NCBI GenBank assembly: GCA_047616505.1
Contig: JBLHGI010000001.1
Location: 1-60,027 of the forward strand
Source of the DNA: Planctomycetota bacterium
GTDB taxonomy: Bacteria; Latescibacterota; UBA2968; UBA8231
Direction: 5' to 3'
DNA: 60,027 nucleotides
A model generated the notes under the pieces. It did no database searches. It saw only the letters and a list, made by a program, of their open reading frames with translations, and was not told the origin of the DNA. Below, in pieces: positions 9,033 through 11,531 of the stretch. The number at the start of each line of letters is the position of its first letter. Position 1 is the first letter of the stretch. A program made the position numbers and the translations under genes.

Positions 9033-9064
9033 CTCTTTTTTATACGGTGCTGTTTTGCAGTAGA

Positions 9065-9175
9065 CCCCTTAGCCTTCGCGCTGCTGCACGTGCAAATTCC
9101 AGTTTTGCCAATAGTACTTCACTGGGTCATCCACCGCCCAATCGGCATAGATCTCTTCTCAACTGACCCAACCCA
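9065..9175. repeat. Direct repeat copy R1: orphan duplicate of the last ~35 codons plus stop of the PhyH gene at 10644..11531
   Basis: 9065-9158 is identical to 10640-10733 (94 bp, offset 1575). The match continues to 9175/10750 with mismatches at 9159 and 9163. Confidence 0.95.
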
Positions 9176-9278
9176 AATCACACTTAATAATGCGACGAGC
9201 GGACGTAGAACCAAGGAGTCATTTCACCAGTACATGACAGAATATTTTTTAATTCACCGGGCAGGTCAAGTCCACTCG

Positions 9279-10208
9279 CTAAGTTTGTGAAGAATCTTGG
9301 GATTGGCTACTTCCACTTTCGACTACTTGTGCCTGTTGTTGACTGTAATCTTCTAATAAACTATTAGTTTGTGGTGATTCCTGTTGTTTGACGTCAACTA
9401 GATAATTCAACACTGCGACCGCGGTCGTTGGATTGGTTGCAAGTGGAACTTGATAAACATCGCACAGTCTGCCTAGCGCTTCTATATCGGCATGATGAGG
9501 ATGCGCTGATAGGGGGTCGCGAAAGAAAATGATCCCCAAAATATTGTCAGTTGAAATCATTTGACCGATTGCCTGATCTCCACCTAGGGGCCCAGATTTC
9601 ACTTTTTTGGACAGAACAATTTTTGCTTCTTTGTATAATAATTCTCCCGTAGTGCCCGTAGCCACAAGTCGAAATTTATTGATTTTCTTCACATGGGATT
9701 GAACGAATTGAACGAGCGTTTTTTTCATTTCATTATGTGCAACTAAGGCAAGGTACTTCCTTCGGTCGGCAGTGAAAAAAATCTCATTCGCCGTTACGTT
9801 TCGCTTATAGAGTTGCTCAAATATAAATTTGCATTTAAGCGCGACTTTCGCATTCTGTTGAAGGAGCGATTCATACATTGCAAGGTCAAATACTAAAGCT
9901 TCTGTTGGCTCTACGGCAATGACGTCAGCAATGCGTATGCCCTGATCGGAAAACATCGCTTCGCCAAAAATATCACCCTGAGTTAGTTTTGCTATTAGGT
10001 GTTTATTGTGATGGATATTTACTTCTCCACTGATGATAAACATTAGAGAAGTCGCTGGTTCACCTTCCTTTACAATAGTTGTATTTTCGTGATAACTACG
10101 CAGCGGCATAACATGGATTAATTCGAGAATTTCATAGTCTGTTAGTTGTCCAGCTAACGGAGATTTTTCTTTTAGAATGTCAATTAAGTCTTTGCGCCTG
10201 TTGTCCAT
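9279..10208 (-). CDS. Cyclic-nucleotide-binding domain / methylglyoxal synthase fusion protein
   Basis: N-terminal half has a cNMP phosphate-binding cassette (GDIFGEAMF...IRIADVIAV). C-terminal half is MgsA-like (LALVAHNEMK, LVATGTTGELL, SGPLGGDQAIG, IIFFRDPLSAHPHHADIEALGRLCDVYQVPLATN). AAAGGA RBS. The gene is markedly AT-rich. Confidence 0.8.
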   Translation of the reverse strand: MDNRRKDLIDILKEKSPLAGQLTDYEILELIHVMPLRSYHENTTIVKEGEPATSLMFIISGEVNIHHNKHLIAKLTQGDIFGEAMFSDQGIRIADVIAVEPTEALVFDLAMYESLLQQNAKVALKCKFIFEQLYKRNVTANEIFFTADRRKYLALVAHNEMKKTLVQFVQSHVKKINKFRLVATGTTGELLYKEAKIVLSKKVKSGPLGGDQAIGQMISTDNILGIIFFRDPLSAHPHHADIEALGRLCDVYQVPLATNPTTAVAVLNYLVDVKQQESPQTNSLLEDYSQQQAQVVESGSSQSQDSSQT

Positions 10209-10639
10209 TTTATTCCTTTCACAATCGAGTGAGGTGAATAGTGAATCGCATCTGCTTAAAGGCCTCTAAGCGTAGTGCTATTGCCTGAAACATGTTCGTC
10301 GTTGGATTCTCTTCCAGTAGCCGACCGGCAAGAGGATCATAAATAAATGCACCATCACTTCGGTTTATCTATTTACGAACATGGTATGATAATCATATTT
10401 TCGCTTCTGTAAATGTGTTAGTTGTTGTATCCAAGCTTAGAGAGGAATTGGCAGAGCGTGCGGTTGTCCGTAGTAGACAGTTAGTATTCTGGTGTAGGTG
10501 CAATAAAGGAAATACCCTGTCGGAGAGCATTGAGATTGCGACATCACCGTGCGCTACCGCTCGCCATTCTGTTTATATATTTACTGAGCTTTATAGCTCA
10601 GCAAAACAGCCTAAGGTTGCCGAAAAAACCAGCCTTAGC

Positions 10640-10750
10640 CCCCTTAGCCTTCGCGCTGCTGCACGTGCAAATTCCAGTTTTGCCAATAGTACTTCACTGG
10701 GTCATCCACCGCCCAATCGGCATAGATCTCTTCCCAATTGACCCAACCCA
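10640..10750. repeat. Direct repeat copy R2 (functional 3' end of the PhyH gene)
   Basis: Partner of 9065-9175. It is preceded by a CCTTAGCC microduplication (10633-10640 and 10642-10649). Confidence 0.95.
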
Positions 10751-11531
10751 TATGCGGCAGCAGCGAATCCTCACGGACCGGATGGCTCAGCGGCTGGTAG
10801 CGATAGTCGACGGAGAGACGCAGCTGGTCTAGCGTCTGGTTGTCGCGGCCTTGGTGCACGGCTAGGCTGTGCAATACGAGCACGTCGCCGCAGGCAAAGT
10901 CGCCGCCAAACCACTCGGTATGCTCGTCTATACTCACGGCGCGTCCCCCGGCGCCTTGGGCCTCGTGTACGTCCATCATGCCGCGCGTATGGCTGCCGCG
11001 CGCCACGGCCAACGAGCCGAGTTCGACGGGGCAGTCTCCCAAGGGGATCCACGCCGTCCAGGTTTCGTCGCTGCCGCCGATATAGAAATGGTCCTGGTGC
11101 GGTGGCGTCGAGTGCGTCTGTGTTTGCGGGAACATTAGACGGCAGATATTGCGGCTGTGGGGCAGTGCCTTTTCGTCGAAGAGCGTCGCCAACATGGTCG
11201 TGATCGAATCGTGCAGCGCCAAGGCGTGGAAGTCGCGCAGCTTGAGCACATCGCAATAGAAGTCCTGCCAACGCGAGTCCCCCGATTCAATCACAGATAA
11301 ATTCTCGCGGGCAATGCCGTCTATCGCTTCAGTGCCCTCTTTTAACCAGCCGTGCTCTTGGCAGGTGTGCAGAATTTGTCGGCGCACATTGAACAAGGCC
11401 GCAGATGGCAGCAGCCCCTTGAAGAAGAGACAGCCGTCTTCGCGTGCGCGCTGGCGCAGTGCCTGCGGATCGTCTAATAGTGACGTCGAGTTGGCATAGG
11501 GTTTTATATTGTGCATCGTGGTCATAGCCAT
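10644..11531 (-). CDS. Phytanoyl-CoA dioxygenase (PhyH) family Fe(II)/2-oxoglutarate oxygenase
   Basis: HxD facial triad (TPPHQDHFY), distal His (HSLAVHQGRDN) and a PhyH-like N-terminus. Confidence 0.8.
   Translation of the reverse strand: MAMTTMHNIKPYANSTSLLDDPQALRQRAREDGCLFFKGLLPSAALFNVRRQILHTCQEHGWLKEGTEAIDGIARENLSVIESGDSRWQDFYCDVLKLRDFHALALHDSITTMLATLFDEKALPHSRNICRLMFPQTQTHSTPPHQDHFYIGGSDETWTAWIPLGDCPVELGSLAVARGSHTRGMMDVHEAQGAGGRAVSIDEHTEWFGGDFACGDVLVLHSLAVHQGRDNQTLDQLRLSVDYRYQPLSHPVREDSLLPHMGWVNWEEIYADWAVDDPVKYYWQNWNLHVQQREG

Follow-up and report, generated by a model that had tools for sequence, protein, structure and literature searches.

A protein joining a cyclic-nucleotide-binding domain to methylglyoxal synthase, encoded by a horizontally acquired bacterial gene

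Positions 1 to 60,027 of contig JBLHGI010000001.1 (assembly GCA_047616505.1, Planctomycetota bacterium), the whole stretch that we analysed and here call the window, contain a gene for a 309-amino-acid protein in which a cyclic-nucleotide (cNMP)-binding (CNB) domain is joined to a methylglyoxal synthase (MGS). We confirm that the cNMP sensor and the methylglyoxal synthase are truly fused in one protein, a combination of known parts. With a probability of roughly 60%, we read it as a methylglyoxal synthase set by a cyclic nucleotide, most likely cAMP, which would make it a valve for the methylglyoxal route that bypasses lower glycolysis. That a nucleotide is bound, which nucleotide it is, in which direction it regulates the enzyme (activation or inhibition) and what physiological role this serves are points that we infer. 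A preliminary description of this DNA had proposed a second-messenger-gated methylglyoxal generator, either a metabolic overflow valve or an effector of growth arrest or abortive infection. The fusion is real and both of its halves are under purifying selection, while the abortive-infection option found no support.

In the mechanism that we propose, the N-terminal CNB domain would bind the nucleotide via the Gly-Glu...Arg residues of its phosphate-binding cassette. The long C-helix and linker (residues 120–145), through which the signal would pass, would relay the change to the C-terminal MGS domain, which would turn dihydroxyacetone phosphate (DHAP) into methylglyoxal and inorganic phosphate. 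The bypass of lower glycolysis, which removes triose phosphate and frees phosphate but yields an electrophile that slows growth, would have in this protein a valve worked by a signal. Should gating by a nucleotide be confirmed, we know of no earlier example of a bacterial central-carbon enzyme under the direct control of a cyclic-nucleotide sensor fused to it. Members of the family abound in marine Verrucomicrobiota and in marine cyanobacteria that dominate ecologically (Synechococcus, Trichodesmium), and such gating would bear on sugar-phosphate overload, phosphate recycling and growth arrest in these groups. In Synechocystis, loss of MGS speeds mixotrophic growth (PMC11897720). When cAMP is added to E. 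coli, methylglyoxal accumulates and growth is inhibited (work of Ackerman et al. 1974, cited by PMC4830989). There the effect is indirect, with cAMP upstream of an unfused MgsA that has no sensor, whereas here the sensor sits within the enzyme; confirmed gating would turn the old observation into a one-protein mechanism.

The fusion protein and its two halves

The open reading frame (ORF) begins with ATG and has an AAGGA Shine-Dalgarno-like motif upstream; Table 1 lists its features. The domain searches suggested in the preliminary description matched both halves. The Pfam model cNMP_binding (PF00027) aligns over profile positions 2–89 of 89 (E 1e-18), and MGS (PF02142) matches residues 165–258 (E 4.7e-14, score 52.7 against a threshold of 24.1). 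The NCBIfam equivalog NF003559 (methylglyoxal synthase) scores 149.6 bits over residues 149–279, against a cutoff of 84. When the C-terminal half was compared with the sequences of the Protein Data Bank (PDB), solved methylglyoxal synthases were returned, among them Thermus 2xw6 at E 3e-33. The best solved relatives of the sensor half, by PDB sequence search and by Foldseek, are the CNB domains of PKG and PKA-R, and CRP. Unlike CRP/FNR transcription factors, the protein gave no Pfam match to HTH_Crp_2 or a Crp domain, its C-terminal half being MGS.

An AlphaFold2 (AF2) model of the 309-residue protein, built on 82 homologues, has a mean predicted local distance difference test score (pLDDT) of 78, and both of its halves match solved folds. 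Superposed on Thermus MGS (2x8w, Foldseek), as the preliminary description had recommended, it gives a template-modelling (TM) score of 0.91 (target-normalised) and a root-mean-square deviation (rmsd) of 1.4 Å over 122 columns. Among the structure matches to the model we found no PDB chain that carries both a CNB and an MGS domain. Against relatives at 75–85% DNA identity, the ratio of non-synonymous to synonymous substitution rates (dN/dS) is 0.09–0.24 for the sensor half and 0.05–0.12 for the MGS half, showing that purifying selection acts on both.

For the active site we aligned the protein with E. coli MgsA, using a reference sequence that we checked to be 100% identical to PDB 1b93. His19, Lys23, Asp71, Asp91, His98 and Asp101 of the E. 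coli enzyme correspond to His158, Lys162, Asp211, Asp231, His238 and Asp241, all six of which are invariant across the 82 homologues (44–91% identity) of our conservation alignment. The preliminary description had thus been right that the equivalents of His19, Asp71, His98 and Asp101 are kept. Asp20 of MgsA, also a conserved acidic residue and part of the active-site region, corresponds to Asn159, a substitution to which we return below. The phosphate-binding cassette of the sensor is similarly well kept: Gly82 and Glu83 are invariant and Arg92 is present in at least 90% of the same homologues, in agreement with the conserved Gly-Glu and Arg noted before for a CAP/PKA-type cassette. A Gln/Ser-rich tail had also been reported behind the enzyme. 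Its last ~13 residues are indeed of low complexity, with pLDDT <50, but residues 282–296 form a conserved helix as in E. coli MgsA, in which Asn282, Leu285, Tyr288 and Gln292 are nearly invariant.

Compared with the stand-alone MgsA proteins of E. coli (1b93/1egh), Thermus sp. GH5 (2x8w/2xw6) and B. subtilis (6f2c), the C-terminal half has the same fold (TM 0.89–0.91, target-normalised; rmsd 1.4–2 Å) at 39–48% identity over ~120–130 residues. It shares the catalytic His, Asp, His and Asp, the phosphate-binding Lys, Thr and Ser-Gly and, with the E. coli enzyme, the C-terminal helix. What the fusion adds are ~145 N-terminal residues, the cNMP-binding domain. Stand-alone MgsA is regulated by phosphate in E. 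coli and by the protein Crh in B. subtilis, and we know of no MgsA that is under the control of a fused nucleotide sensor. An Asp20-Arg150 salt bridge is the proposed path of phosphate allostery in E. coli MGS (PMC4133812). Because Asp20 is replaced by Asn in the fusion, this bridge cannot form, and phosphate control has probably given way to control by the nucleotide.

The same design, with a CNB domain in cis to a non-transcriptional output, is found in the mycobacterial acetyltransferase Pat (CNB-GNAT) and in bCNG-type MscS channels, whose output domains differ from the one described here; a weak NCBIfam match to Pat lies at the level of the CNB domain only. In the literature searched we found no report of a glycolytic or overflow enzyme with fused-CNB control and no published description of a cNMP-MGS fusion, which agrees with the earlier suggestion of a possibly undescribed single-gene system.

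Gene neighbourhoods and the predicted signal

The preliminary description had left the source of the signal open and had called for a survey of the architecture and its neighbours. We analysed the context in other genomes by neighbour clustering, Pfam annotation and scans with home-made hidden Markov models (HMMs). In 10 of 17 marine Synechococcus loci, a gene for a class III cyclase with a CHASE2 domain lies within two genes of the fusion, and in at least five of those 10 it is adjoined by a FecR-domain gene. Class III cyclases follow a specificity rule that sets a Lys/Thr pair against a Glu/Gly pair. The Synechococcus cyclase carries Lys (in DKFIGD) and Thr (in EYTVIG), as does the adenylate cyclase CyaB of P. 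aeruginosa (3r5g), and not the Glu/Gly of the guanylate cyclase Cya2 (2w01); because of this pair, it is predicted to make cAMP. The matches of this cyclase to the PADLOC PycC model stem from the class III cyclase fold that both have in common and cannot tell the two apart. The question of the signal source is in this way partly answered from marine Synechococcus, where the adjacent cyclase points indirectly to cAMP.

The survey showed further recurrent neighbours, which are metabolic or belong to general signalling. A cNMP-binding MscS channel is encoded in nine loci, and a phosphofructokinase gene lies near the fusion in six Synechococcus loci. One Synechococcus locus (L026) was confirmed to hold a Crp regulator and a stand-alone CNB protein, and another Synechococcus clade has an alpha-amylase/CBM20 gene nearby. 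Phosphofructokinase also neighbours the fusion in a Gemmatimonadetes metagenome-assembled genome (MAG), and in a Sedimenticolaceae MAG (L020, 957–7368) the order is H+-pyrophosphatase, phosphofructokinase, adenylate kinase and cNMP-MGS. Since the phosphofructokinase of the latter is just 25% identical to the Synechococcus type, this energy/phosphate cluster would have arisen independently. A further contig, labelled 'Crocinitomicaceae' (L031, PACT01000043.1), encodes a GatB that is 95–97% identical to marine Synechococcus GatB; its label is almost certainly a binning error. We therefore count the phosphofructokinase association for Synechococcus, Gemmatimonadetes and Sedimenticolaceae only. 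Taxonomic labels of MAGs are unreliable, and the other MAG loci are likewise to be treated with caution.

In marine Synechococcus, the CHASE2 class III cyclase, FecR-domain, phosphofructokinase, cNMP-binding MscS channel and cNMP-MGS genes appear together as a cAMP signalling island within ~6 kb of the fusion (L026, L027, L029, L033, L035, L037, L040 and L043–L045). Between strains with 95% identical GatB, the island phosphofructokinases are ~65% and the cNMP-MGS proteins ~50% identical. The Synechococcus neighbours, together with Crp, outline what could be an uncharacterised cAMP regulon, testable in cultured strains.

In the window itself, Pfam annotation of 10 neighbours gave an Opp-like ABC transporter, a Nei/Fpg glycosylase, a PhyH-family dioxygenase and a metallophosphoesterase. 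The statement of the preliminary description that no cyclase is encoded next to the gene extends to the whole 60 kb, as far as a home-made class III cyclase HMM and the Pfam scans of the 10 neighbours can detect one. Because none was found there, the cassette would have to respond to a cyclase encoded elsewhere in this genome.

Table 1. Features of the fusion gene and its surroundings, in positions of the window.
Feature	Position	Strand	Basis
Coding sequence (CDS), 309-aa fusion protein (cNMP-binding domain + methylglyoxal synthase)	9279..10208	-	ORF list; Pfam and NCBIfam matches; homologues with the same two domains; stop codon 9279-9281
cNMP-binding beta-barrel domain, residues 37-119 (wider sensor module, residues 1-145)	9852..10100	-	PF00027 E 1e-18; AF2 pLDDT 81-94 for residues 11-130
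Phosphate-binding cassette GEAMFSDQGIRIADVIA, residues 82-98, with Gly82, Glu83, Arg92	9915..9965	-	Direct translation
Long helix and linker joining sensor and enzyme, residues 120-145, in the position of the CRP/PKA C-helix	9774..9851	-	AF2 helices 120-140 and 142-145
Methylglyoxal synthase domain, residues 149-279; active site His158, Asn159, Lys162, Asp211, Asp231, His238, Asp241	9372..9764	-	NF003559 149.6 bits; 2xw6 E 3e-33; Foldseek 2x8w
Codon AAT for Asn159, position of E. coli Asp20 / Thermus Asp10	9732..9734	-	Translation and alignment
Conserved C-terminal helix, residues 282-296 (N-x-x-L-E-x-Y-x-x-x-Q), aligned with the E. coli MgsA C-terminal helix	9321..9365	-	BLASTP; AF2 helix 283-302
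Low-complexity Ser/Gln-rich tail, residues 297-309, variable between homologues	9282..9320	-	Alignment; pLDDT <50 for 299-309
Best sigma-70-like promoter match (TTTACA, 16 nt spacer, TATCAT)	10386..10413	-	Weak; 4 sites against 2.9 expected by chance, not significant
Low-GC insert of 1,457 bp, holding only this gene and its upstream region	9179..10635	.	41.5% GC against 56% for the window
Direct repeat copy 1, displaced second copy of the terminal 105 nt of the PhyH-family gene with a few bases beyond the stop codon; closely follows the nei/fpg-like gene	9061..9178	.	Repeat search; four-way alignment with L100
Direct repeat copy 2, functional 3' end of the PhyH-family gene (ORF 10644..11531, -)	10636..10753	.	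Repeat search; four-way alignment with L100

Objections and rival readings

A number of observations weigh against the reading of a nucleotide-set synthase. The inter-domain geometry of the AF2 model is unreliable (predicted TM score, pTM, 0.48), which leaves the coupling mechanism a conjecture. The relatives that supply the context evidence are just 44–53% identical to the window protein, and its closest relatives (68–91% identity) stand in unrelated gene contexts. In addition to a cyclase, the window lacks a phosphofructokinase, an MscS-CNB channel and a second CNB protein in the home-made HMM scans. At the residue after the cassette Arg, Ala is typical for cAMP sites and Thr for cGMP sites; here it is Ile, and a preference for cAMP or cGMP cannot be read from it. 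The cassette Arg itself is missing in one abundant open-ocean Synechococcus lineage (P0078, L089–L091), which reads ...DGTSFEQ... and whose neighbours are an Lhr helicase, an alpha-amylase/CBM20 gene and DUF1543 but not a cyclase. Nucleotide binding would therefore not be universal in the family, and nucleotide sensing may have been lost in this lineage. On the enzyme side, the older model TIGR00160 scores 141.1, just short of its cutoff of 146.9, and Asn159 occupies the position at which the D10N mutant of Thermus MGS drops from a kcat of 326 to 0.41 per s, a loss of ~800-fold (PMC4133812, Table 1). The earlier wording 'catalytically intact' was for this reason too strong, even though the four residues named for it are present. 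Since Asn159 replaces that Asp, the enzyme may be slow or strictly conditional.

The two objections to the enzyme could mean that the MGS half is weak or inactive and mainly a DHAP- or phosphate-binding module, in a protein that works as a regulator or sensor combining the nucleotide signal with the triose-phosphate level. Carbamoyl-phosphate synthetase uses an MGS-like domain as such an allosteric module, and the PF02142 description reports this role for other enzymes too. We consider this explanation unlikely. The family shows no variation at any other catalytic or phosphate-binding residue, the NF003559 equivalog is matched far above its cutoff, and the protein has no DNA-binding or other output domain. 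Moreover, Asn159 is no isolated defect: the motif AHNxMK, and with it Asn at the Asp20 position, occurs in nearly the whole close family. We counted both residues in the best 150 representatives from a library of 1.84 billion proteins; as they were ranked by how closely they resemble a query that is itself of the Asn type, the frequencies are biased. Stand-alone MGS of less than 190 residues had 16 Asp against 3 Asn, EF-hand-MGS fusions Asn in 13 of 13, and CNB-MGS fusions 9 Asn against 12 Asp. To judge from these sequences, Asn at this position defines a large natural 'His-Asn' MGS subfamily of mostly fused or long proteins, which argues for a working, Asn-adapted site; we infer that the enzyme is active despite Asn159. 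Glu160 was considered as a stand-in for the missing Asp and ruled out, as Synechococcus reads AHNNMK and others AHNAMK or AHNSMK.

The objections to the sensor lead to a different alternative, a constitutive MGS with a CNB-like domain that has lost cyclic-nucleotide binding and serves oligomerisation or binds another small ligand. Besides the lineage without the cassette Arg, the Ile-Ala-Asp that follows this Arg is unusual for cAMP or cGMP sites, and CRP/FNR-type domains can bind other ligands than cNMP, as several effector domains of this family do. This is set against the conservation of Gly82, Glu83 and Arg92, the strong Pfam cNMP_binding match and closest solved relatives (PKG, PKA-R) that truly bind cGMP or cAMP. 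A cyclase is moreover adjacent in 10 Synechococcus loci, several of which hold other CNB proteins. We hence give constitutive activity little credence and retain the nucleotide-set synthase as the preferred reading.

Mobility and distribution of the gene

The fusion gene was clearly acquired horizontally in this genome, where it is a solitary, recently acquired single-gene cassette. It has 40.5% GC in a contig of 56% GC, and lies in an insert flanked by two 118-nt direct repeats that are 97% identical (Table 1). In a 97.8%-identical strain (L100) the repeat copies are just 86% alike, so that gene conversion seems to have made part of copy 2 more like copy 1 in the window. An assembly artefact was ruled out, because the junctions recur in a JGI contig (100% identical), in two Logan contigs, both of which break inside the repeats, and in L100. 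DNA similarity to other fusion loci is confined at most to 9248–10344, which reaches past the CDS by ~30 nt on the downstream and 136 nt on the upstream side. The insert carries no integrase and no structured RNA listed in Rfam, and its promoter and terminator counts are at chance level. Flanking direct repeats were not found in nine other fusion loci, giving no general integration signature, and a search of metagenome contigs with the PhyH-family protein gave no clean empty integration site. In a related species (L095 5882–7138, also L096; ~73% DNA identity), a region syntenic with window 9033–10643 shares the ABC transporter, nei-like, PhyH-family and metallophosphoesterase genes; in place of the cNMP-MGS cassette, a different ORF of 418 aa separates its nei-like and PhyH-family genes.

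Mobility extends to the rest of the family. As in the window, the GC content of the fusion gene is below that of its flanks in 30 of 33 loci, and proteins that are 72–83% identical occur in MAGs assigned to different phyla. L005 (5763–7034) and L006 (4151–5422) share, at 100% identity, a segment of 1,272 bp made up of the gene, 238 bp upstream of it and 110 bp downstream. It stands in different contexts, a tyrosine integrase with small unannotated ORFs in one case and efp-TPR in a Gemmatimonadetes MAG in the other; both contigs end just after the fusion gene. The preliminary description had considered that this might be a common, vertically inherited housekeeping gene. The gene is common, with hundreds of database entries, but was acquired horizontally here.

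Strong mobility would also suit a defence gene. Methylglyoxal is toxic, and in a Pycsar-style effector of defence or growth arrest a cyclase would fire on phage or another insult, the nucleotide would switch on the MGS domain and a methylglyoxal burst would stop the cell. One may even speculate about a mobile 'poison tap' that answers a cNMP surge (infection, grazing, envelope stress) with a growth-arresting burst, a single-gene effector of abortive infection or dormancy of an undescribed kind; spread across phyla would then reflect selection as a defence gene. The protein shares with the Pycsar effectors (CNB plus a TIR or transmembrane killing domain) an N-terminal CNB sensor and a potentially harmful output, its CNB half hits the PADLOC PycTIR model (E 3e-12), and in picocyanobacteria variable, island-like regions host it. 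However, we judge both the general and the bolder version improbable, as the PADLOC matches cover the generic CNB domain only, which Pfam and PKG fit better, and as the output is a metabolic enzyme without TIR domain or transmembrane segment. No PycC pyrimidine cyclase is adjacent, and PADLOC found no defence genes among the 10 neighbours, only generic ABC ATPase matches. The cyclases next to orthologues are of the membrane CHASE2 receptor type with the ATP-type pair, beside a FecR-domain gene, and not cytosolic pyrimidine cyclases; phosphofructokinase, MscS channel, Crp, adenylate kinase and amylase are the recurrent neighbours, and the Puniceicoccaceae copy lies among housekeeping genes. Finally, neither IMG/VR nor the GenBank phage collection contains the fusion. 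Both have only stand-alone MGS, which also rules out the phage-borne auxiliary gene that the low GC content had suggested.

A search of 5.8 billion proteins gave 528 matches. Nearly all of the top 120 have both domains, and those that are named are labelled simply 'methylglyoxal synthase'. In a scan of one genome per species we obtained 38 fusion loci, which include many marine Synechococcus (among them the cultured MIT S1220 and PH41509), Trichodesmium erythraeum IMS101, Hormoscilla and several Verrucomicrobiota, as well as MAGs labelled Latescibacterota, Gemmatimonadetes, Sedimenticolaceae, Brocadiaceae, Rhodopirellula, Fibrobacterales and proteobacteria.

Three uncharacterised groups of relatives extend the picture. 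The representative search revealed a more distant CNB-MGS group that keeps the canonical His-Asp, pointing to at least two independent cNMP-MGS fusions. There are also EF-hand-MGS fusions, with a second-messenger sensor N-terminal to MGS, and tandem MGS-MGS proteins (P0144, P0148, P0155, P0129 and P0132). The EF-hand fusions share the His-Asn active-site variant with our protein and differ in the sensor, which is of the Ca2+ type. Because both kinds of sensor fusion exist, MGS has been linked to second-messenger sensors repeatedly, and the parallel suggests that control of methylglyoxal production by second messengers recurs as a design. One of these proteins (P0129), which combines two MGS domains with EF-hands, derives from the transcriptome of a marine microbial eukaryote (MMETSP). 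This origin sits oddly with the published statement that MGS is found in prokaryotes only (PMC11897720). In three Synechococcus loci, from one MAG and two single-cell genomes (L043 5941–6877, L044 5971–6886 and L045 5971–6887), sensor and MGS lie in separate, overlapping ORFs, which could be a frameshift pseudogene or a sequencing error.

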